Positions 1 through 18,063 of a DNA stretch of 20,706 bases are shown here, one piece after another. Source of the stretch: an uncultured delta proteobacterium. GTDB taxonomy: Bacteria > Desulfobacterota > Binatia > Bin18. The stretch is from NCBI GenBank assembly GCA_963733195.1, contig CAVTCR010000087.1:1-20706 (forward strand). Direction: 5' to 3'. A model generated the notes under the pieces. The model did no database searches. It was given only the letters and a program-made list of their open reading frames with translations, and was not told the DNA's origin. The stretch's first letter is position 1. Each line of letters opens with the position of its first letter. The translations under genes and the position numbers were made by a program.

Positions 1-1235
1 TCAAGCGTGAAGAGGCGGCACCCACGTTTCCTACAATGAAACAGCGGCTGGAAAAGAAGGAGCTGGTACTTCGACGCGAGATTGAAAAGTTTCTGGAGGT
101 TCTCAAGGTGCTCGGCACTCCCCTGATTGAGGAGCCGGCTGTCCATTTTGTCTATTACAATCCCACAGCGCATTATGTCGCTGTCAGCGGGGAGTTTAAC
201 CAATGGACTACTACTCCCATGACCCCTCTAGGACAGACAGGAATCTTTTATCATACGATCAGTTTAGCGGCCCCGCACGAGTCGAATATAAATTAGTCGT
301 TGACGGGCAGTGGATAGTAGATCCTTGCTGTCACAACCGTGTCGACAACGGTATTGGGGAGCAGAACTCCTTCTTTGTGGTGGGAGATTTCCAGGAGCCG
401 CCCGAACTGGAGTGGGTGCCAACCATACCCCATGGACGCGTAAAGGAATTCGATTTCACCAGCAAAATACTGAACAATCAGCGGCGGGTATATGTCTATC
501 TGCCTCCAGGGTATAAGAAACATCCCTCCCAACGCTTTGCAACCTTTTATATCCATGATGGCGGTGAGTACCTCTCCCGGGCTCGACTGCCTACTGTCTT
601 AGATAACCTGCGCCATAGCCAGAACATTCCTCCGCTGATGGCGGTGATGGTAGACCCAGTTGACCGTATGGCAGAGTACCGCGCCAGTGAGCTGTATGCG
701 CAATTTCTGGAGAAGGAGCTAATCCCTTATATCGATCATCATTATCGTACGCGCGCAGAGCGCGAGGCTCGGGGTGATGGGCGCCTCAATGGGGGGACTC
801 AGCTCGACCTACCTGGGCTTGTCGCGTCCCCATCTCTTTTCCAAAGTGGCTGGTCAATCCAGCGCCTTATTTCTGGAACAGGACAAGATTATCACTTTGG
901 TGAATGGGTTAACTGCGAACACCAGCTTTTACTTTGATGTCGGAGCGTATGAGCCGCAGTTTATTCCTGCCCATCACCAACTCGTGCCGCTCTTGCAAGC
1001 GAAAGGTTGTCCTTGTCTGTTCCAAGAGTTGGAAGGCGGGCATAACTGGACGAACTGGCGCGCCCACTTAAAGGACCTTCTCACCTTTCTGTGGGGAAAG
1101 AAAAAAGCAGAAGACGTAGAACGGACGCCAGTAATCAAGAAGGCGAGGTCGCCACGAAAAAAGCCAGCTAGCAAGCGCCAACAGCTGACAAACTCTGGGA
1201 CGTTATCTCAGCATGAGGCAGAAGCACGGGGGTGA
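1..1235 (+). CDS. Alpha/beta-hydrolase (Fes/enterochelin-esterase-like putative esterase) with N-terminal CBM48/AMPK-beta-like carbohydrate-binding domain; 5'-partial, split by two frameshifts
   Basis: Frame open from position 3. ORFs 36-296, 203-937 and 774-1235 join into one protein: VAVSGEFNQW...YKLVVDGQWIVDP (CBM48-like), VYVYLPPGY...HDG, nucleophile GASMGG, GGHNW. Breaks fall in short homopolymers (TTT 263-265, GGGG 771-774), so they may be sequencing errors. Confidence 0.85.
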
Positions 1236-3004: not shown

Positions 3005-3151
3005 CTACTGTATGTGTTCCGGTACAGTTCCAGGCGGCGAATACCTTATCACCAGTGGCTGCGAGGTGACATTCATCGCGGGATAGGCAAACCGTCTCTC
3101 CCGGGCTCTGTCGAGCATCTGGCAGTAGATTTCATAATTTGCCACCGGCAT
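3005..3151 (-). pseudogene. fbaA: Truncated class II fructose-bisphosphate aldolase (N-terminal ~30 aa only)
   Basis: AAGGAG RBS (3158-3163), then ATG 3151: MPVANYEIYCQMLDRARERRFAYPAMNVTS, matching the FbaA N-terminus (MP.A..E.Y..MLD.A....FAYPA.NVTS). Unrelated sequence follows, with a stop at 3005. Too short for the ORF track. Confidence 0.8.
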
Positions 3152-3206
3152 AACTTACTCCTTTCGTATCCGTCTCCATCGGCGCGCCGACCACGTCTGG
3201 CGAAAA

Positions 3207-3322
3207 AGACTACTCGATGAAGCGGTTCAAGGACGCCATGGCACCGGTTCAATTTTTCACGTCGTCGGTTCAGATTTCGCATTGCACGTTGACCTCTCGT
3301 TCAAGGGTCAGTAAAGGTTCAA
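3207..3322 (-). promoter_or_regulatory. YTGAACC-box array B with -10, upstream of the fbaA stub
   Basis: GTTCA on + at 3225, 3247, 3268, 3299, 3317 (22/21/31/18). On the minus strand the proximal box is followed by 12 nt and TAGTCT (3212-3207). Confidence 0.78.
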
Positions 3323-4575: not shown

Positions 4576-5340
4576 TCAGTTCTCTCTCCCATTTTCAGTT
4601 TGTTGACGTCCGATCCTCGTGGGCGGCGGCTTGGCCTTCCCTGTATGTAGCCCAAGTGCGGCGATCTGCCTTTGCAACTCTGCGAATATAACATCCGCCG
4701 GCTCGGTTGCGTCCACCCTCACGAACTCGTACTTCAGGGCCAGCTGATCCAAGGTCTGAATCACACGCGCTTGATAGCGCACGAAGCTGTCGTACATGTT
4801 GCCGCCGAACCGCATATCCATGCCACTCTCCCAGTAATCGAAGACGCCTCGCCCACGGATTACACGAGTAACCAAATCTTTCACTTGTGGGCGCAGATAG
4901 TACACCGCATGTGGAATCAAGGCGAAGTCAGTCCCGTGTTCGATCCAAGCAGAATCCTCGCCACGCGCAATCGCCCGTGCAATAATAGAATAAATATAAC
5001 GATCCGTGAGTACGACAAAGCCGGCGCGGAGCGCGGGAATGATTTCATTTTCCAGACGGTCCGCGAAATCGGTGACATAATAGAGCGTCATGGTCACCGG
5101 TCCCAGGGTGTTCCCTTCTTTGGCTTTTTTAATTCCCTTACCGGCCAGAGCCGAACGTGCCATGCCCGTATCGAGGACCGCATGCCCTTCCTGTTCCAGC
5201 CACTGCCGCAGACGCGTCACCTGCGTAGAGCGTCCGACCGCATCTGGCCCCTCGATGACGATCAAAGCACCGTGCAACTCCGCGCAGTCCACACCTGGCA
5301 GAGGAGTGTTATAGAATTGTAAGGGTCCCTTCGCTGCCAT
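4576..5340 (-). CDS. Thymidylate-kinase-like protein, second of a tandem pair (atypical P-loop)
   Basis: LIVIEGPDAVGRST P-loop (R in place of K), VVLTDRYIYS, DFADR. Confidence 0.88.
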   Translation of the reverse strand: MAAKGPLQFYNTPLPGVDCAELHGALIVIEGPDAVGRSTQVTRLRQWLEQEGHAVLDTGMARSALAGKGIKKAKEGNTLGPVTMTLYYVTDFADRLENEIIPALRAGFVVLTDRYIYSIIARAIARGEDSAWIEHGTDFALIPHAVYYLRPQVKDLVTRVIRGRGVFDYWESGMDMRFGGNMYDSFVRYQARVIQTLDQLALKYEFVRVDATEPADVIFAELQRQIAALGLHTGKAKPPPTRIGRQQTENGREN

Positions 5341-6061
5341 TCTTCCCTCGCTCGACGCTGTACAAGGCTCCAGTGTGTAAGCTCCTGCCTAACTTCTTCT
5401 GCACGATGTCTCGCATCTGTTGTTGCTGCTCTTCAATCGACAGCGTGGCGTCAATCACCTGAAAGCCCATCTCCTCCGTCATCGCTTCGTACTCGTCGAG
5501 TATCCGACCCTGGAAAAGACGAAAGCTCTCTTCGACCTCCCGACTGAGCCCGAGATCCATCCCAGCTTCGTAGTATTTGATCGCCTGGCGCCCGCCCAGA
5601 ATGCGGCCCAGCGCCACTTCCAAGGGCGTCTGGAAATAGAAACTCAGGTGCGGTCGCGGCGCAAAGCTGTAGAGCCGGCGGACCCACTGGCGATCGACGC
5701 CGCGCGCCACATCACGGGCAAAGGCCGTGTAGGCATAGCGATCGGCACACACGACCGCTCCAGCCTTCAACAGCGGCAGAATGTAGCGTTCCATCCGGTC
5801 AGCAAAATCCGTGGCGTGCAGTAAACTGAAGGTCGTGGGAGTGAGCATCTTCCTCTTTTTACCCCGTTGCATCGTCTCACGGACCAGGGGAGAGGAGTTC
5901 CATTCACTGAACGCGACCGCGATCGCCTGCGAACGTAGCCATTGGCTCAGGAGAGAGAGTTGAGTAGATTTTCCTGAGCCATCGATTCCTTCGACCACAA
6001 TCAGTTTCCCCTTGAAGCGATTCGGTGCGAACAAGGCGGCTGTCTGTTGATACTCCTGCAT
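5309..6061 (-). CDS. tmk: Thymidylate-kinase (dTMP kinase)-like protein, first of a tandem pair
   Basis: LIVVEGIDGSGKST P-loop, DFADR, VCADRYAYT. Overlaps the partner gene by 32 nt. Confidence 0.9.
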   Translation of the reverse strand: MQEYQQTAALFAPNRFKGKLIVVEGIDGSGKSTQLSLLSQWLRSQAIAVAFSEWNSSPLVRETMQRGKKRKMLTPTTFSLLHATDFADRMERYILPLLKAGAVVCADRYAYTAFARDVARGVDRQWVRRLYSFAPRPHLSFYFQTPLEVALGRILGGRQAIKYYEAGMDLGLSREVEESFRLFQGRILDEYEAMTEEMGFQVIDATLSIEEQQQQMRDIVQKKLGRSLHTGALYSVERGKNGSEGTLTIL

Positions 6062-6148: not shown

Positions 6149-6204
6149 AATCTACATTCAAGCACTGGTTCAACACGAGTGACAAACGGTTCAATTCTTT
6201 TCAG
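6149..6204 (-). promoter_or_regulatory. YTGAACC-box array C with -10, upstream of the tmk-like pair
   Basis: GTTCA on + at 6168 and 6189 (21), degenerate TTTCA at 6199. On the minus strand the proximal box is followed by 13 nt and TAGATT (6154-6149). Confidence 0.62.
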
Positions 6205-6325
6205 ATTTCACTTCTGAACTTCCCTAGCAGGTGAAAGCTCCTGCAATTGCTTTCCGAGGAATTGTCATGTGCCTGCGGCGCGCCCTTAAGGATGAAAACG
6301 AAACCGGAATCTTGTCTTTCTTGAT

Positions 6326-6522: not shown

Positions 6523-7386
6523 TTACTGGGGCGAATTGACTACGATATAGGTCACACTGCCGCCACTGTAGGAAGGTTGATACCAGGTTGACCCGCATTG
6601 ATAGTAGGACATCCCGTTCACCGACATTGAAGTACACGAACTCGACTGGGCGCTGAAGGCGGCGGCAGTCATCACGGACCCGATCGCCATGCCTGCTAGC
6701 ACTCCCCCCGCCGCGTATCCTCCGTAGTGGTATCCTCCTCCCCATTCGCCATGGTAGTCCTCCCCGTATTCTTGCCAGTCTTCGCGGCTGTTCTTCCCGT
6801 ATTCCTGTCGGTCCTCGCGCGCATTATTCCCGTAATCCTGCCAGTCTTCCCGGTTTTGATCTTGCTGGGTATTACGGGTGGATTGCCGCTCGCTGGCAGC
6901 GGTTTGGCGGTTCTGCTGATTTTGGGTCGAAGTGCCTTGCCTCTGACTGGCAGCGGCTTGACGGTTCTGCTGATTCTGGGTCGAAGTGCCTTGCCTCTGA
7001 CCGGCAGACCCTTGCCGACTCTGTTGCATTTGGGATCGATTGGCCGACATTTGACTGGCAGACCCTTGCCGACTCTGTTGTCTTTGCGAAGCGCCCCCTT
7101 GCCAACTGCCACTGCTGGCGGCGCCACCACGAGAATAATTTGCACCGCCCGAACGATTGCCACCGAACGAGCCCGTACTCGCTGCACCACTCCGGGAGAA
7201 ATTCCCGCCGCCGCCACCACCTCGACCCCCGCCGCCACCACTAAAACTCCGGCCACCCCCGCCACCACCTCGACCCCCGCCGCCACCACCTCGACCTCCC
7301 CGTGCTTCGACCTGCGCTGCGATAAAGATGCCCATCAACAATAGTGCCATCCATACGGTGTGACGTATCCACGTTTTCGTGCTCAT
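6523..7386 (-). CDS. Exported Gly/Gln/Ser-rich low-complexity protein with a Tyr/Cys-containing C-terminal domain (DUF6515-like)
   Basis: AAGGAG (7394-7399) before ATG 7386. Signal peptide ending VEA, then RGG/G runs, 18-aa Q-rich repeats, REDWQ[DE]Y repeats, a hydrophobic GVLAGMAIG segment and YYQCGSTWYQP. Confidence 0.82.
   Translation of the reverse strand: MSTKTWIRHTVWMALLLMGIFIAAQVEARGGRGGGGGGRGGGGGGRSFSGGGGGRGGGGGGNFSRSGAASTGSFGGNRSGGANYSRGGAASSGSWQGGASQRQQSRQGSASQMSANRSQMQQSRQGSAGQRQGTSTQNQQNRQAAASQRQGTSTQNQQNRQTAASERQSTRNTQQDQNREDWQDYGNNAREDRQEYGKNSREDWQEYGEDYHGEWGGGYHYGGYAAGGVLAGMAIGSVMTAAAFSAQSSSCTSMSVNGMSYYQCGSTWYQPSYSGGSVTYIVVNSPQ
6893..7080. repeat. 54-bp tandem coding repeats (two pairs)
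   Basis: CTGGCAGCGG...GTGCCTTGCCTCTGA at 6893 and 6947; GGCAGACCCTTGCCGACTCTGTTG at 7003 and 7057. Confidence 0.85.
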
Positions 7387-7493
7387 GGCTGTACTCCTTA
7401 TACTCATGCCCAGGCTCTGCCTGGGCATGCTGTGTTTTTGCAGATCTGCCTCACGTCACTCGTTCCTAGCCTCTACCTGGGAGAGAGCGATTT

Positions 7494-8360: not shown

Positions 8361-8783
8361 TCACTTGACACCGACATCTTTCATCGCAGTCTTGCAGCGC
8401 GTACTTACATCCTTCTCGTTCTTCTTCAGACACGCCGCCAACCGCCCTCCACCCGCTTCCACTGAGGCGCAGTGCTTCTCTAGATCCGCTTCACATTCGC
8501 TGGCAACGTAGGTCAAAGTCGCAATAGCGTGCTCAAGCTGCGCCGAGGCGTCGTACAAAGCATACTCGCACCGGCTCGAAAGCTTATCCTGGTACGCGTA
8601 CAAGCAGGCAAGAACCCTCCCCTCACCCGGAGTGACCTCCTTACAGAACGAGTCGAGTTCCTTCTTACAGCCGTCCTTGACAGACGCGATTAAATCCTGC
8701 TGCGCCCAGGATGTGTTGAATGCACCGGGCAGCATGAAAAGCACCGCTACAGTCAACAGAAACTTTACCACTCGTCTCATCAT
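8361..8783 (-). CDS. Exported cysteine-rich-repeat protein (GLG1/Cys_rich_FGFR-like repeats)
   Basis: Signal peptide (SWA-Q) and two C-x6-C...GxGR..ACL...S.RC repeats. GAGGAGG RBS. Confidence 0.88.
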   Translation of the reverse strand: MMRRVVKFLLTVAVLFMLPGAFNTSWAQQDLIASVKDGCKKELDSFCKEVTPGEGRVLACLYAYQDKLSSRCEYALYDASAQLEHAIATLTYVASECEADLEKHCASVEAGGGRLAACLKKNEKDVSTRCKTAMKDVGVK

Positions 8784-8872: not shown

Positions 8873-8938
8873 ACCATACAAGATGCAGGGGGTCAGGTAC
8901 ATACTGACACGGTTCAAGTTGTGGTTCAGACGGTGCAA
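8873..8938 (-). promoter_or_regulatory. YTGAACC-box array D with -10, upstream of the Cys-rich/DUF2092/Gly-rich genes
   Basis: On +: GGTCA 8891, GTTCA 8912, GTTCA 8924, GTGCA 8933 (21/12/9, the same spacing as array G). On the minus strand the proximal box is followed by 12 nt and TATGGT (8878-8873). Confidence 0.75.
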
Positions 8939-8955
8939 TTTTCTCAATGAACCTT

Positions 8956-9612
8956 TCATTCGTCTGCTTGCTTCGCATACAGACTGACCAACCACGCGAC
9001 AAGAACCGTGAGATACATCTGCCCACCCACCGCTTCGAGGATCGTCAATCCCTGCGCCGAGTCGCTCGCTGGGACGACATCACCGTAGCCGACCGTCGCA
9101 ATCGTCACAAAGCTGAAATAGATGGCGTGCGCCAGAGTCGAGATCGCTTGCCGAGCCACCCCGAACGAGGCGGGCCAAGTCTGGTCGAGCAGCCAGTAGC
9201 AAACGGCGAAAATCAGACCAGCCAGCAGATAGGCATCCAAAGCAGCAAAGATATGCTCGGCGTCCACAATCCGAGCTCGCAGCGCATAGCGCACCGTGGC
9301 CGCCGTCGCCAGAAGGCTCGCCGCCACCCACAGAACCTGGCTTATGGGCAGCAGGGCTTCAACGCCGAGCACGGTCCGGACGCCGCGGGTGACGACGAAC
9401 GCAATACCGAGTAATAGCAGTACCCGAATCCACCGCTCGTGCGCGGCGCTCGCGACCGCGGCCACGAGATTCACGGCCAGCAACAGCTCCAACGGATTGA
9501 AGCTTGATACAAGCGCCTCAAGTGCAGGATGAGCTCCAAGAGTGAGCAGCAGCGAGAAGAACAGCCAAGCGAAACGGTGGCGGCGATAGCTGCTGAGAAC
9601 GGTCGTCAGCAT
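8956..9612 (-). CDS. Potassium channel family protein (Ion_trans_2 pore)
   Basis: YFSFVTIATVGYGD selectivity filter and multiple TM helices. Confidence 0.93.
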   Translation of the reverse strand: MLTTVLSSYRRHRFAWLFFSLLLTLGAHPALEALVSSFNPLELLLAVNLVAAVASAAHERWIRVLLLLGIAFVVTRGVRTVLGVEALLPISQVLWVAASLLATAATVRYALRARIVDAEHIFAALDAYLLAGLIFAVCYWLLDQTWPASFGVARQAISTLAHAIYFSFVTIATVGYGDVVPASDSAQGLTILEAVGGQMYLTVLVAWLVSLYAKQADE

Positions 9613-9634: not shown

Positions 9635-9835
9635 TTACTCTTGCCGGTCGGGCTCGCTCAGCACCTTTACCATGAAAGCCAGTAACTCTTCGAGCGAATG
9701 AAAGCGTGCGGCTTGGTAAGACACCAAATGCTCTACCCGGCCCTGCCACTGTCCCTGTTCGACCTTCGCGTCGGCATGAACCTGCACGACAAACGCACGC
9801 TTGGCTGGGAAAGAGACTCGTTGCTTTGATGACAT
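9635..9835 (-). CDS. Small hypothetical protein (66 aa), divergent from the wHTH-STAND regulator
   Basis: AGGAAAG RBS. Compact beta/alpha sequence AFVVQ...GRVEHLVS...F.SLEELLAFM. First gene behind array E. Confidence 0.8.
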   Translation of the reverse strand: MSSKQRVSFPAKRAFVVQVHADAKVEQGQWQGRVEHLVSYQAARFHSLEELLAFMVKVLSEPDRQE

Positions 9836-9895
9836 CTATACTTTCCTACTTGTTGACGGGAAGTTCCTTACAGGCATTGTCGAGCTTGCCAGAAG

Positions 9896-9983
9896 ACAGT
9901 ACGTTTGTTGCCGGTTCAAATATAGAGGATAAGTTGCGTTTTCGGTTCAATTTCGGTTCAAATTTAAGCCGAAAGTGGTTCAA
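9896..9983 (-). promoter_or_regulatory. YTGAACC-box array E with -10, in the divergent region between the small gene and the regulator
   Basis: GGTTCAA four times (GTTCA at 9914, 9945, 9956, 9978; 31/11/22). On the minus strand the proximal box is followed by 12 nt and TACTGT (9901-9896). The distal box abuts regulator ATG 9984. Confidence 0.8.
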
Positions 9984-12900
9984 ATGACCCAAGAAAACAA
10001 TAGAGGCGCAACACTGTCTGAGTCAGAGTTGCACTTTGGGCCGTTTCGCTTAGAGGCAGCTAAGCAGCTGTGGCGAGAAGACCAGCTCATTAACCTGCGG
10101 CGGCAGTCTCTGGCCATGCTGCGGTATTTAGCCGAGCGACCACACCAACTGGTCACGAAAGAGGAGTTGCTCGAACAGTTATGGCCGGGGATTTATGTGT
10201 CGTCCACTGTGGTCAAGGTGTGCGTGCGAGAAATTCGGCATGCTCTTGGGGATGTGGCCACAAAGCCGCAGTTCGTCGAGACGGTGGGAGTGCAGGGATA
10301 TCGGTTCATCCAAGCAAGCTACCTCCAGTTCTCAGTTCCAGTTGTCAGTTCCGCGTTTAGAGGCAGGAGGCGAGTTCCTCAACTGCAACTGATGAGAACT
10401 GGCAACTGCCAACCGGCTTACAGCCACTGACAACTGACAACCGGCGACTGACAACTCACTTTGTCGGGCGGGAGTACGAGTCGGCGCAGTTGCAGGCGTG
10501 GTACGCGCGCGTGCAGCAAGGCGAGCGACATATCATTTTCGTCTCTGGCGAGGCCGGCATTGGCAAGACAGCGCTGGTGGAGCGCTTTCTTGCGCAAGCG
10601 CAAGCGAGGGGGACCGTACGCATCGGGCGCGGACACTGTATCGAGCAGTATGAACACGGGGAAGCCTACCTGCCTGTGCTGCAAGCGTTGCAGCAGTTGT
10701 GTCGTGCCCCCGACGGCGACCAGGTGGTAGCCATACTACGCCGTTACGCGCCCCTCTGGCTTATCCAGCTCTCGGGGGTGATCGAGGGAGACGAACTGGA
10801 AAAGTTACAACGTCAGGTCCAGGGCAGCAGTCCCCAGCGGATGTTACGTGAATTCGCTGAAGCCATCGAAGTGTTGGCGACTGAGACCCCGGTGATCTTG
10901 TTTCTCGAAGACCTGCAGTGGAGTGATGCCGCGACCCTGGAGTTGCTGGAGTATCTGGCACAGCGCCAGGAGCGCGCCCGGCTGCTGGTGCTCGGCTCCT
11001 ATCGACCAGCGGATACGGTGCTGAGCAGGCATCCCCTGCGTCGAGTGGCGCAGAGGCTGATTGGACGTGGGCAGTGTCAAGAGCTGGCGCTGGAATTGTT
11101 CACCCAAGCGGAAGTTAAAGCCTATCTGACCCAACGACTGGCCGGGAGTCCGGTCGTGGACGTCTTGGGACTGGTGATTCACCGCCGTACGGAGGGGAAT
11201 GCTCTGTTTGTGATGCACTTTGTGGACTATCTGCTCCAGCAGGGCTTGCTGGTGGAGGCAGATGATCGTTGGGAGTTGCGGGTGGAGCCGGCTACGCTCG
11301 AGGATCTCATCCCTGACCACGTGCAGCAACTGATTACCAGACAGATTGAAGGGTTGAGCAGAGAGGTGCAGCAGCTCTTGGAAATGGCCAGTGTGGTGGG
11401 GATGAGCTTTACGGCCAGCGAGGTGGCGGCGGTCATCAATCGCCCGCTGGAAGCAACGGAGGCGGTGTATGATGAGCTGGCTAACCAGGGGCGATTCCTA
11501 GAGGTCCAAGGGCTGGCTGAATGGCCGGATGGGTCCATCACTGTTCGCTATCATTTTCGCCATGCCTTGTGTCAGCACGTGCTGTATCACCGCATCGGAC
11601 TGGCGCAACGGGTGCGCTGGCATCGGCAGCTCGGCGAGCACTTCGCTAAGATGTACGGGGAGCATACGCAAGAGATTGCCGGCGAGTTAGCCTTCCATTT
11701 TGAGCGTGGGCGGGAGTACCGGCGCGCCATCCTCTTCTGGCAGCAGGCAGGGGAGCATGCGCTCCAGCAGAACGCGTACCAGAAAGCGCTTGAGCATGGC
11801 CAGGCTGGGATAACACTCCTCACGCAACTTCCAGCCACAGCGGAACGCGGGCAATTGGAACTCAAGTTACGTCAGATTGTGAGTAGTAGCGCTGGCGGTG
11901 ATCCGGGGGTTCACAGATGACGAACTGGAAGACAACCTCCGCCGCGCCCAGCAGCTCTGTCGAGAGCTGGAGGATGATGCCACGCTTGTGTCAGTGGTAA
12001 TAAGCTTAGCTCGACTGCAATTGTATCGTGCCAATCGCCCAGCAACTGGAAGAGCTGGTACGACAGGAAGAGGATTTGGCCGAGCGCCTCCATGATCCGC
12101 TGCTGCTGGTTCAGCTCCATACACAATTGGTGGCTAGCGAGACATTCCGGGGGCGACATACTCGTGCCGAAGAACATTATCAACAAATCCTTAGGCACTA
12201 TAACCCGCAAGCTCACCGGTCTTCTCCTGCTTTCTTGGGTCAAGACCCATTCGTAGGAGCTCTCGGCGCCTCCGGTCTGAACCTCAGCCTATCGGGGTGG
12301 CTCGATCAGGGCTGGAGCCGTCTCGCGCAGGGACTCGCACTTGCGGAAGAGTATGCGCAGTATGTACTTTTGGCCAACGGGCTGTTGCTCGCCGTGCCGG
12401 TGAAGTCCCTTCGCGGCGAATATGAAGAGGCATGGCAGCTCGCCAAAAAAATGGACGCGCTCTCACGTGAGCATGATTTTTCACTGTATGTGCACCTTGG
12501 AGTCCTGCTCCAAGGCGGTATGGCAGTGCAATGTGGCGCGCTAGAGGAAGGGATTGCGGCAATTACCGGTGGGCTCTCACAGTATCGCGCCACAGGAGCC
12601 CAACTCTTCATACCCTATTTTTTGTCGTTACTCGCGGATGGCTATCGGCAACAGGGGAAGGTCGCAGAGGCACTGCAGGTGGTGAGTGAAGCCCTTAGCT
12701 TGACGACAACGAATTTCGACGTCTTCTGGGAGGCGGAGCTGTATCGGCAAAAAGGCGAGCTGACGCTCGCCCAGTCTAGTGTTCAGCGTTTAGAGTCGGG
12801 AAAGAAAATCAAAAATCAAAAGTCAAAAGTCAAAAGTCAAAAATTTCTGACCCCCAATCCCCGACCCCTAACCCCCAAGGAGAAGCGGAGGCGTGTTTTC

Positions 12901-13102
12901 TGCAAGCCATCGAGATCGCCCGCCGGCAGGAGGCGAAGCTGTTGGAGCTGCGGGCGGTAATGAGCTTGGCGCGGCTGTGGCACCAGCAGGGAAAGAAGAA
13001 GAGGCTCGACAGAGGCTGGCCGAGATCTACAACTGGTTCACTGAAGGGTTGGAGACGAAAGACTTACAAGAGGCCAAAGCGTTGCTGGCGGAGTTGGCAT
13101 AA
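9984..13102 (+). CDS. Transcriptional regulator: OmpR/CadC-type winged-helix DBD + STAND (AAA_16-like) ATPase + TPR-like sensor; at least 5 frameshifts (pseudogene or sequencing errors)
   Basis: FGPFRL...LVTKEELLEQLWP...IRHALGD...VETVGVQGYRFI (Trans_reg_C); FVGRE, Walker A GEAGIGKT, Walker B LFLEDLQWSD, RTEGNALF; C-terminal ELRAVMSLARLW...YNWFTEG...DLQEAKALL. Frame changes near 10310-10430, 11888, 12040, 12800-12876 and 12995. Confidence 0.9.
10325..10455. repeat. Inverted heptamer tandem arrays in the DBD-ATPase linker
   Basis: About 4 YCAGTTS units at 10325-10351 face about 9 degenerate RCAACTG units at 10380-10455. Confidence 0.8.
12804..12877. repeat. Heptamer tandem arrays inserted in the regulator's C-terminal region
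   Basis: About 5 AAAARTC units at 12804-12843, then GACCCCC AATCCCC GACCCCT AACCCCC at 12849-12876. Encodes KIKNQKSKVKSQK...TPNPRPLTP. Confidence 0.85.
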
Positions 13103-13283: not shown

Positions 13284-14296
13284 CTATGTGGATGTGAAGT
13301 CACGAATACACGAGGTCTCCTATTTTTTTATGACTTCTTTATCTCCTGACCAAAGAGAGACTGGCTGCTATACGTGGCACGGCACTCAGGCCGTCACACT
13401 GACTTGGGAGGCGCCCCTCTCAAAGGCATCCGGCCCCGGGCTCTCTGTCTCAAGGCGCGAACCGTTAGGAGTGTTTCTCTCCTGCTTCTGCTTGTCGTCG
13501 AGTCGTTCCCTGGGGCACGGTCTCCTCTTGGGTCAACGGAGCCGAACCAACTCTTTTTCTGACCTCATAAGAGCGTTGTTGCATCAAGACCACCGAAAGC
13601 CGCACGCTGAGTTTGCGCGCCACTGCCACAATAGCCACCCTCGCAGCCACCGGGCGCGGATGGGTTTGACAAACCGAGCGATAGAATTCCCGCAACTCCC
13701 CGTCTTGGCGGATCGCCGACCACGCGGCTTGAATGAGTTTGCTTCTGAGCCGTGGGTCACCGCTGTGGGTGATCGAGCCCCGGTCGGTTTTCTCCCCGGT
13801 GGAGTGCTCGGTGGGCACCAACCCCAGAAAGCCGGCCACCTGGCGGATGTTTTTCAGCTCGCGCCAATCTCCGATCCGCGCCAGCAACTGGCTCCCCACA
13901 ATCCAGCCGATCCCACTGATGCTGGTCAGATACTTGAGACACTGCGCCAGCTCGGGATCGTGCTGGCAAAAACGACGGATCTCTCGGGTGGTCTTCACCA
14001 CCTGCTTCTCACTAAACTCCAAACTGTCCAGCAACTGGTCGAGTTTGAAAAGGACCGTCGGGCGCGCAGGGCAGGTGCCGCAGTTGCTTTTTGACCAGCC
14101 CGGACCACTGACTACCAGGAGGCGCGGGAGGAAACTCGAGCCCTTCCAACAACAGCAGCGATTTAATCCGTTGCTTCATCCCCACCATCTCGCTGACAAA
14201 GGTATCGCGCAGCTGGGTCAGGTGGCGCAGCTCTCGGTACGGGACCGAGGGCACGTGAATGCTTTTGAGTTGCCCTCCTCGCAGTGTCTCCGAGAG
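13284..14296 (-). mobile_element. 5'-truncated IS110-family element (transposase remnant 13465-14296 plus 3' non-coding end)
   Basis: LRGGQLKSIHVP...RELRHLTQLRD; LTSISGIG...GFLGLVPTEHSTG...GSITHSGDPRLRSKLIQAAW...AIVAVARKL. The N-terminal DEDD domain is missing and there is a frameshift near 14050-14062. The element end near 13284 is approximate. Confidence 0.88.
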
Positions 14297-14424
14297 TGGG
14301 CTGACTATTAAAGTCAACATATCCATTAAGGACCCGAAACCATCACCATTGTTCGGCCGGGACCACGGTCCTTCTACTGGTCCAGCGTGATCTTGGTGAT
14401 TTTTCTCTGTCTTCTGCCCTGCTA

Positions 14425-15979: not shown

Positions 15980-16055
15980 AAACTACTCGATCACAAGGTT
16001 CAGATACATCGTAACCTCGGTTCAATTATGGTTCAAAGCGGTTCAAATTGATTCA
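15980..16055 (-). promoter_or_regulatory. YTGAACC-box array F with -10, upstream of the YSC84 and TPR genes
   Basis: GTTCA on + at 15998, 16020, 16031, 16041 and ATTCA at 16051 (22/11/10/10). On the minus strand the proximal box is followed by 12 nt and TAGTTT (15985-15980). Confidence 0.8.
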
Positions 16056-17997: not shown

Positions 17998-18063
17998 CTG
18001 AACCATCTGAACCGTAATTTGAACCATGTCAGCGTGTATTTGAACCCCGACGTAATGTATACC
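17998..18063 (+). promoter_or_regulatory. YTGAACC-box array G with -10-like hexamer, upstream of the 18282 gene
   Basis: TGAACC at 17999, 18008, 18020, 18041 (9/12/21), then 12 nt after TGAAC, then TATACC (18058-18063). Confidence 0.78.

Follow-up and report, generated by a model that had tools for sequence, protein, structure and literature searches.

Which protein reads the GGTTCAA boxes that crowd the start of a large regulator gene in an uncultured member of the Binatia? The window, that is, the whole stretch of DNA under analysis, is contig C87 (CAVTCR010000087.1), 20,706 bp in full, of a 6.95-Mb genome bin of 87 contigs (G000; G, C and L numbers denote genomes, contigs and loci throughout). 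It carries a gene for a protein with a winged helix-turn-helix (wHTH), a STAND ATPase and a TPR-like C terminus, preceded by four perfect GGTTCAA boxes. The window contains this heptamer 16 times where 2.37 copies are expected, and none of 100 shuffles reaches 16. Comparative sequence evidence makes it probable that the regulator is the cognate, switch-type (STAND) activator of GGTTCA arrays at its own gene and at neighbouring operons. A cognate, autoregulated activator had been proposed earlier from the sequence of the window alone (the sequence-only reading), and the proposal is now supported by conservation of the arrays, by co-occurrence of motif and regulator, and by covariation of the repeated word with the recognition helix.

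The regulator and its box arrays

The domain order given in the sequence-only reading was recovered by Pfam searches of the reading-frame pieces, which match Trans_reg_C, AAA_16 and TPR profiles (Table 1), the TPR_MalT match (E 1.8e-5) being under the cut-off. In the window translation, Walker A (GEAGIGKT, ~10547-10570) and Walker B (LFLEDLQWSD) are present, and G167/G170/G172-K173-T174 and E287-D288 (ED..W.D) are invariant across 44 homologues; the recognition-helix region reads VSSTVVKVCVREIRHAL. The DNA-binding domain (DBD) starts at about residue 17, and neither a Response_reg receiver domain nor a GerE/LuxR HTH was matched by Pfam on the window pieces or on an intact orthologue. The earlier remark that a BTAD domain is not evident also stands: PF03704 gave no match at E<=1 on the intact orthologue and none at E<=0.01 on the window pieces, and the structure model passes from the wHTH through a disordered stretch to the nucleotide-binding domain (NBD). 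Moreover, the regulator is the only one in the window, as had been claimed, in that a Pfam scan of 69 open reading frames (ORFs; 22 + 47, comprising all of at least 80 aa plus a 66-aa ORF and the regulator pieces) found no second DNA-binding family (E<=0.01 / 0.001); the only other nucleic-acid enzyme among them is a split IS110-type transposase.

An AlphaFold model of the intact G275 orthologue (44-row alignment; predicted local distance difference test score, pLDDT, 87.7; predicted TM-score, pTM, 0.74) begins with an OmpR-type winged helix at residues 17-109 (strands, three helices and a hairpin), continues through a disordered stretch (116-136) into an alpha/beta P-loop domain, a helical domain and a winged-helix domain, and ends in helical repeats that run from 518 to 1003 at the C terminus. 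The predicted arrangement is that of STAND NTPases, namely a nucleotide-binding oligomerisation domain (NOD) of NBD, helical and winged-helix parts followed by a repeat sensor. Foldseek searches with this model returned the STAND-TPR structure 6mfv first (E 4.6e-12), then Avs3, and also MalT (8bob, E 3.8e-7), Apaf-1 and CED-4. By sequence, solved relatives cover the DBD only (CadC 5ju7, profile E 3.2e-17; ToxR, PhoB and OmpR), and the family profile reaches the TPR region of AfsR (8k60 residues 744-985, E 8.6e-8).

Array D, the four boxes before the regulator, has spacings of 31, 11 and 22 nt with its last box abutting the ATG at 9984, just as had been read from the sequence, and it is the proposed operator common to the regulator gene and the divergent operon. 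When 18 canonical sites from five genomes are aligned on box 1, they share a conserved flank (A-17 in 15, T-13 in 17, A-12 in 16 and C-11 in 15 sites), which on the opposite strand reads GTAnnnT, a -10-like hexamer 11 nt outside box 1 that is exact in 13 of the 18; other flank columns are more variable, the next highest being 14/18 at -32. With the hexamer set at -12 to -7, box 1 falls at about -29 to -24 (centre about -27), box 2 at about -48 and box 3 at about -60, and at the -35 position a conserved T(A/G)TA stands in place of TTGACA. Within the window, TAnnnT lies at an offset of 11-12 nt in five of the six arrays, with an ORF 72-106 nt further on, and a purine-rich Shine-Dalgarno-like stretch was found in the 16 nt before the ORF start for arrays A, C, D and E and not for array B. 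Activation of the leftward operon, another element of the sequence-only reading, agrees with this layout, in which the arrays lie upstream of a conserved -10-like hexamer pointing away from the regulator. Since the geometry of boxes and hexamer is like that of SARP targets (see below), the most likely role of the arrays is to activate transcription in the direction leading away from box 1.

Control of the regulator's own gene is a separate matter. No full sigma-70 promoter was found in 9750-10050, nor a sigma-70-like site for the regulator's rightward promoter in the same interval, and by inspection no conserved TAnnnT at a fixed offset follows the last box. The start codon lies 23 nt beyond box 3, and a fourth box sits on the ATG in G000 and G283, so the regulator's promoter would have to overlap the operator. 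Because array D covers the 71 bp before its own ATG, the regulator very probably regulates itself; self-repression by occlusion is a guess, one that we mildly favour.

To our knowledge, only a handful of STAND transcription factors have been studied, namely MalT, GutR, AfsR and other SARP-LAL proteins. In the literature searched, which was covered mostly at abstract level, no study of a BTAD-less Trans_reg_C-AAA_16-TPR regulator was found, and papers naming both Pfam domains concern, as far as their abstracts go, Streptomyces or gene-neighbourhood methods. AfsR and the large SARPs share with the present protein an N-terminal OmpR-type winged helix, a STAND NOD, TPRs and a length of about 1000 aa, and their targets are likewise direct repeats in 11/22-bp phase over the -35/spacer region, close to the -10. 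A small ORF as neighbouring target is a further likeness, as AfsR activates afsS, whose product is small. SARP targets have repeats spaced at 11/22 bp, of which the 3' one stands 8 bp from the -10; the centre of the afs box is at -29.5, and the BTAD of AfsR contacts sigma region 4, the beta flap and the C-terminal domain of the alpha subunit (PMC10936776). Because it is the BTAD that makes these RNA-polymerase contacts, the activation contacts must differ in a regulator that lacks one. Further differences from AfsR and the large SARPs are the 21-residue disordered stretch that links wHTH and NBD in the model, a P-loop that scores as AAA_16 and not as NB-ARC (E 0.0032, under cut-off), arrays of 3-5 boxes instead of 2, and a host from an uncultured lineage, not an actinobacterial biosynthetic cluster. 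In addition, the GGTTCA core ends 11-12 nt from the -10, whereas that paper gives 8 bp for the SARP repeat, although the two distances could be equal if the recognised unit extends past the core. The protein is a BTAD-less, SARP-like STAND transcription factor; with no detectable BTAD it is not a SARP, although it looks SARP-like in action.

Other known systems share single parts of this design. MalT and the LAL proteins have a STAND NOD and a TPR-like sensor, in line with the TPR_MalT and 8bob matches above, and MalT undergoes ligand- and ATP-driven multimerisation on arrays of repeated boxes; their DBD, however, is a C-terminal LuxR/GerE HTH and not an N-terminal OmpR/CadC winged helix. ToxR, CadC and HilA resemble the regulator in the DBD, which is closest in sequence to CadC 5ju7 and ToxR, and in having no receiver domain, the feature that sets OmpR/PhoB response regulators apart. 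The NCBIfam models for CadC (E 4.9e-14) and HilA/EilA (E 4.5e-12) match only the first ~120 residues, with scores far under the curated cut-offs (52 vs 400 and 45 vs 589), and a presumably cytoplasmic STAND ATPase with TPRs follows the DBD where those proteins have a membrane anchor and a periplasmic sensor; inspection of the model, made without a transmembrane predictor, found no hydrophobic helix after the DBD. The TOMM kinase/cyclase fusion family TIGR03903 aligns at positions 483-1266 with orthologue residues 138-962 (E 2.3e-74), and it and the class III cyclase-AAA-TPR proteins share the AAA_16-TPR module that occurs at ~125 loci in G000. The score of 251 against an equivalog cut-off of 706 and an output by DNA-binding winged helix, not kinase or cyclase, separate the regulator from that family.

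Conservation of the arrays and proposed operator words of the family

The sequence-only reading had asked whether homologous regulators elsewhere carry such arrays and whether motif and regulator occur together, and the answer is positive on both counts. A scan of one genome per species found three orthologues, in G283 (78% identity), G275 (64%) and G320 (61%). Each has an array at the corresponding place, made up of 3-4 phased GGTTCA(A/G) boxes that stop 0-23 nt short of the ATG and agree in order and roughly in spacing (21-32 nt, followed by 11-12 nt). The divergent 66-aa ORF is likewise present at each. Boxes also precede the starts of paralogous modules with 51-56% identity (G283:C175, G314:C440 and G235:C25), the first two of which again have the small ORF. 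The triple-box pattern GGTTCA-N14-26-GGTTCA-N4-6-GGTTCA is found in 14 of 401 genomes of the class sample, with multiple hits in G000 (6), G283 (10), G320 (7), G207 (4), G314 (3) and G275 (2). At least two hits occur in 3/3 orthologue-bearing genomes versus 2/397 others, these two being G314, which encodes a 56% clade member with the same module, and G207, where the hits are an unrelated GGTTCACC tandem repeat. Canonical sites are confined to seven genomes, all of one family (G000, G283, G320, G314, G275 and, with one site each, G235 and G317); in the remaining seven hit genomes (G207 and six outside the family) the matches are tandem or coding repeats without the -10 promoter signature. Neither an orthologue nor arrays were found in the same-genus genomes G016 and G279.

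An ordinary response regulator of the OmpR/PhoB type, encoded elsewhere, might instead bind the arrays, their adjacency to the STAND gene being incidental. Streptomyces PhoP recognises GTTCA-type direct repeats of 11 nt, and 48 Trans_reg_C matches in G000, short frames of response-regulator size among them, provide candidates. Yet the boxes stay at the regulator's start codon in the three orthologues and in the 51-56% paralogue modules, and within the family a different recognition helix in the adjacent protein goes with a different upstream word. Moreover, no pst or pho gene is present among 37 ORFs flanking 17 arrays in four genomes, and those with Pfam matches are envelope, sugar/central-metabolism and channel proteins. 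The PhoP/PhoB alternative that the sequence-only reading had named is thus weakened, and we regard it as improbable.

The STAND regulator as cognate binder is best argued from the wider family. Periodicity was measured as the best autocorrelation lag among 5-18 in the 100 nt before the start codon. For 27 distinct homologue loci from many genomes the lag is 11 in 15, 12 in 4 and 10 in 1 (20/27, against about 6 by chance), and for the 33 DBD-bearing loci of G000 it is 11 in 19, 12 in 4 and 10 in 2 (25/33). The repeated words across loci (GGTTCA, GGTAAGG, GGTGGAAT, TCGAACAT, GCGTG.AAT, CTGGGAA and GGTGAYATT) change with the recognition helix. Thus, the helix TV(V/L)(K/R)VC..E(I/L)R goes with GGTTCA at six loci, KAVVKECLRAIR with GGTAAGG (L009), DGILKGYIRDLR or EALPKDYIQELR with GGT(G/A)GAAT (L018, L011), DPALTVCMGRLR with TCGAACAT (L012), ESV(L/V)RGTIRELR with GCGTG.AAT (L019, L023), E(S/A)ALTSC.RDLR with CTGG.(G/A)A (L020, L034) and (D/E)GVLKVCIRR(L/I)R with GGTGAYATT (L021, L022, L025, L029). 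No evidence speaks more strongly for binding of each protein to the repeats before its own gene than this covariation of word and helix. In addition, triple arrays of GGTAAG were found in two of 55 family genomes, in each case immediately before the gene of a family regulator. The family, which counts 2531 proteins at E<=1e-20 among 8000 candidates scored, appears to follow a simple and testable operator code. Its best 120 hits bear, where named, generic names only, such as 'DNA-binding winged helix-turn-helix protein/predicted ATPase', and the source names of homologous proteins are 'Candidatus Binatia bacterium' and 'Deltaproteobacteria bacterium' metagenome-assembled genomes.

Repetitive DNA of another kind might also imitate operators, the arrays then being a dispersed repeat family akin to the heptamer arrays and REP-type elements of this lineage. 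The genome is rich in short tandem repeats, with heptamer arrays even inside the regulator gene. Arrays of at least three GGTTCA number ten in G000, against 0-2 for nine control hexamers, and four of the ten lie on the window contig, which makes up 0.3% of the genome; a further two (C59 and C12) are of just that sort, being heptamer or in-gene repeats. The arrays considered here, in contrast, have a period of 11/22 nt and not 7, keep a constant distance of 11 nt to a conserved TAnnnT, lie between genes and ahead of ORFs, and are retained at orthologous positions while their flanks diverge, so that this explanation is very improbable.

On the preferred reading, the regulator would be a one-component, ATP-switch activator in which a short disordered linker joins an N-terminal OmpR/CadC winged helix to a P-loop NOD, with a TPR sensor behind it. 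Several protomers would bind head-to-tail on 3-5 GGTTCA(A/G) boxes that are 10-12 or 21-22 bp apart and hence on one DNA face. With box 1 ending 11 bp from the TAnnnT -10, a promoter without a normal -35 would fire away from box 1, in the class-II geometry described for SARPs and PhoB. Array D would drive the 66-aa ORF and the K+ channel, array C the unit of Cys-rich, DUF2092 and 301-aa genes, array B two kinase-like genes, and arrays A and E their own units; arrays C and B together would cover the remaining leftward genes as far as 4576. Ligand control is expected to act through the TPR region. Binding, activation, oligomerisation and this TPR control are what we infer from sequence comparison.

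The family is large, and the BTAD through which SARPs touch RNA polymerase is missing from it. If the operator code is true, it would offer a ready set of orthogonal protein-operator pairs and a test case for a bare OmpR-type domain on a STAND scaffold activating a -35-less promoter. It would also give a first handle on gene regulation in an uncultured class; no paper containing both 'Binatia' and 'transcriptional regulator' was found in the literature searched.

Paralogues, frame changes and evidence on the other side

The genome holds other candidates for the same word. About 30 of the ~125 AAA_16-TPR loci have an N-terminal winged helix. An initial view that the arrays are confined to the window contig was rejected once GGTTCAG was included, as C70, C76 (two) and C62 also have arrays. 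The boxes differ at position 7, where A stands in 11 of 15 on the window contig and in 1 of 12 elsewhere (Fisher p 0.0014, the boxes being non-independent), and the arrays on C62, C70 and C76 have G at this position in 11/12; likewise, the regulator's own boxes have A in 4/4, whereas the paralogues' own boxes have G. The further canonical arrays lie at C62:192444-192492, C70:22675-22713, C76:49455-49493 and C76:58044-58082 and adjoin genes for OmpA-family, peptidyl-prolyl isomerase (PPIase)/HupE, glycine-zipper and carbonic anhydrase/bestrophin-like proteins. They may form a sister regulon of one of the paralogues C62:204970, C65:91449 or C18:49005.

The window copy of the regulator is not one ORF. 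With an intact 1004-aa orthologue (L002:9593-12607) as tblastn query, its coding information is complete and collinear and no segment contains an internal stop or deletion, but the reading frame changes in the order 3>2>3>1>3>2, with five breaks near 10349-10421, 11872-11886, 12038-12049, 12858-12861 and 12985-12995. The G275 orthologue is an intact 1004-aa ORF and that of G320 (~1030 aa) keeps a single frame throughout, while the G283 orthologue is broken twice, each time within a heptamer-repeat tract, and removal of one CTGGCAA unit at its first break would put DBD and ATPase in the same frame. Heptamer tandem repeats of this type lie in coding linkers of regulators (10426-10456 and 12805-12876 in the window; L001:1670-1800) as ACTGACA x4.4, AAAATCA x5.7 and a C-rich 7/14-mer; they could reflect slippage-driven on/off switching of individual regulators or an assembly artefact. 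At least three frame changes occur elsewhere in the window, where the esterase, transposase and Ysc84-like genes are also split. Across G000, most of the ~125 AAA_16-TPR loci have 1-7 frame changes relative to an intact homologue (for example C65:133126-139486, C1:64586-67629 and C76:33230-36511), 183 junctions in all. Two simple sources were considered and rejected as the main one: homopolymers of at least 5 lie at 39/183 junctions versus 162/915 controls, and heptamer periodicity at 12/183 versus 15/915, enriched yet a minority.

These data bear on the possibility that the boxes are real operators of the clade and the window copy is dead, a paralogue elsewhere with a near-identical helix occupying the window arrays in vivo. 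Five frame changes in 3.1 kb are denser than in the rest of the window, and C62:204970, C65:91449 and C18:49005 have both GTTCA-type boxes before their starts and similar helices; frame changes are, however, pervasive in this assembly and not concentrated in homopolymers, and every segment is collinear with intact orthologues. Moreover, the window arrays share the position-7 A with the regulator's own boxes, unlike the arrays on other contigs and the paralogues' boxes. We therefore hold this possibility to be unlikely, and on balance lean towards a regulator that is intact in vivo.

Several observations nevertheless count against the regulator as cognate activator of the window arrays. The whole case is one of comparative sequence analysis. 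A reversed-pattern control matches 8/401 genomes, so triple-hexamer patterns have a background. G317 has a canonical array without a family DBD within 1.5 kb on either side, and conversely C1:20814 and C62:226404 encode near-identical helices and have no arrays. At least four paralogues (C62:204970, C65:91449, C18:49005 and C70:3095) combine similar helices with GTTCA- or TTCAG-type boxes, and with several such paralogues present the window copy is not supported as the sole binder. Array F has no exact TAnnnT; at array E and at some arrays in G283 and G320 a conserved ORF lies ~45 nt past the last box, so control may be bidirectional at some sites and its direction may not always be outward. 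A cruder statistic, hexamers with one mismatch, reached p<=0.05 in only 7/28 loci and gave p 0.465 for the window's own region; it was replaced by the lag autocorrelation on the ground that it is underpowered. The regulator has 1.6 frame changes per kb (5 in 3.1 kb) against a family mean of ~0.54 per kb in G000, about threefold more, and with a density above both the family and the rest of the window this copy may be a real pseudogene. Finally, the contig may be an accessory or mobile element or a binning error, as is hinted by an IS110-type transposase directly 3' of the regulator together with the lack of the module in both same-genus genomes. Contig C87 could be mis-binned in a bin with 4.49% contamination, and in that case the within-genome arguments would be weakened.

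The divergent small gene, candidate targets and other features

The 66-aa ORF that faces the regulator is real, judging from its conservation: a database search at E<=1e-3 gave 161 clusters, of which 119, listed in addition to the window's own, show 70-86% identity and, where named, are all 'hypothetical protein'. The family has an invariant pattern, RAF.V..GR.EH..S..F.S..L..F, and is also encoded divergently beside the distant paralogues L009, L019, L023 and L034. At L021, L022, L025 and L029 (G196, G207, G178 and G118) its place is taken by a different ORF of 78-79 aa (MQDKTYVITEIVGVS...), presumably akin to dodecin-type flavin-binding proteins. The 66-aa protein is modelled as a three-stranded sheet with a helix (pLDDT 82); a fold search with this model gave no PDB match at E<=0.001 (best E 1.2), and nothing named was found for the protein in Pfam, NCBIfam or the ESM Atlas. 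As a tentative and rather doubtful generalisation by analogy, the lineage might run a large, mutually insulated, 'NLR-style' set of one-component transcription factors (the ~30 wHTH-AAA_16-TPR paralogues here), each reading an 11-bp repeat operator of its own, with the word dictated by a small number of recognition-helix residues, and many paired with a divergent ~66-aa protein (RAFVV..GRVEH..S..F.S..L..F) as primary output or feedback partner, as in AfsR/AfsS.

Pfam annotation of the 37 array-flanking ORFs mentioned above identified envelope proteins (OmpA, glycine-zipper, OprD-type porin, FadL-type, DUF1329 and PPIase), channels and transporters (bestrophin-like, SulP and HupE/UreJ proteins), a carbonic anhydrase, and sugar enzymes, namely glycogen phosphorylase, pyruvate kinase, glyceraldehyde-3-phosphate dehydrogenase (GAPDH), ROK kinase, amylase and a GH63-like protein; 12 have no Pfam match. 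The window's own arrays precede K+ channel, DUF2092 and Cys-rich repeat genes, the last of these, at 8783, heading the unit behind array C with the DUF2092 and 301-aa genes, all on the minus strand. Array C has an orthologous array at G283:C92 11498-11536. The predicted targets (envelope, channels, carbonic anhydrase, glycogen phosphorylase, GAPDH, pyruvate kinase and amylase) point to a physiological programme worth identifying. The two thymidylate-kinase-like genes under array B, which overlap each other, look out of place in a regulon that otherwise abounds in envelope and sugar-metabolism functions.

Table 1. Coordinates of the regulator, the box arrays and neighbouring features of the window
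Feature	Position	Strand	Remarks
Regulator gene (wHTH, STAND ATPase, TPR)	9984-13102	+	six frame segments; ~1035 codons if joined; stop TAA 13100-13102
Trans_reg_C, OmpR/CadC-type winged helix	10083-10307	+	PF00486, E 8.5e-17
Low-complexity linker of heptamer-type repeats	10324-10456	+	Tandem Repeats Finder (TRF); ACTGACA x4.4 at 10426-10456; contains first frame change
AAA_16 P-loop domain	10460-10990	+	PF13191, E 3.9e-29
TPR-like sensor region	12010-13099	+	TPR_2 and TPR_MalT matches (piece 12010-12960); three frame changes; second heptamer tract 12805-12876
Array A	3224-3322	+	GGTTCA 3224, 3246, 3267; CGTTCAA 3298; GGTTCAA 3316
Array A, outward -10-like TAGTCT	3212-3207	-	next ORF start 3151 (-)
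Array B	6167-6205	+	boxes 6167, 6188, degenerate 6199; upstream of two thymidylate-kinase-like genes (6061 to 4576, -)
Array B, outward -10-like TAGATT	6154-6149	-	next ORF start 6061 (-)
Array C	8890-8939	+	degenerate GGGTCA 8890; 8911; 8923; GGTGCA 8934
Array C, outward -10-like TATGGT	8878-8873	-	next ORF start 8783 (-)
Array D, four perfect GGTTCAA boxes	9913-9919, 9944-9950, 9955-9961, 9977-9983	+	conserved in G283, G275, G320
Array D, outward -10-like TACTGT	9901-9896	-	11 nt outside box 1; next ORF start 9835 (-)
Array E	15997-16055	+	boxes 15997, 16019, 16030, 16040, degenerate 16050
Array E, outward -10-like TAGTTT	15985-15980	-	next ORF start 15899/15905 (-)
Array F	17999-18046	-	box 1 at 18046; towards + strand genes beyond 18070; outward hexamer only TATACC
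66-aa ORF	9635-9835	-	first gene of leftward unit; then K+-channel-like gene
K+-channel-like gene	8956-9612	-	Ion_trans_2 match
IS110/IS116/IS902-type transposase, two ORFs	13465-14326	-	Transposase_20 and DEDD_Tnp_IS110 (Pfam); directly 3' of regulator
Thymidylate-kinase-like gene pair	4576-5340, 5309-6061	-	PF02223, E 1.7e-16 and 9.8e-24
301-aa ORF	6523-7428	-	follows DUF2092 gene
CBM48 module and putative esterase	3-1235	+	over three overlapping ORFs 3-296, 203-937, 774-1235

A few minor features complete the window, in which no Rfam family was matched. The 301-aa ORF has no Pfam match; homologues of it are present in the G320, G314 and G275 loci, and three tandem-repeat blocks (periods 33, 54 and 21) lie within it at 6763-7296. 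The split of the CBM48/esterase gene is a probable further frame error, and in G283 its homologue adjoins the regulator's 3' end (L003). In the stretch from 3151 to ~2915 on the minus strand, the ORF that starts 72 nt outside array A has a strong Shine-Dalgarno sequence (AAAGGAG) but only 48 codons; it is probably a truncated or frame-shifted gene, and we take it to resemble class II aldolase N-termini. A 57-aa stretch at 3065-3235 shows 75% identity to G283:C520.

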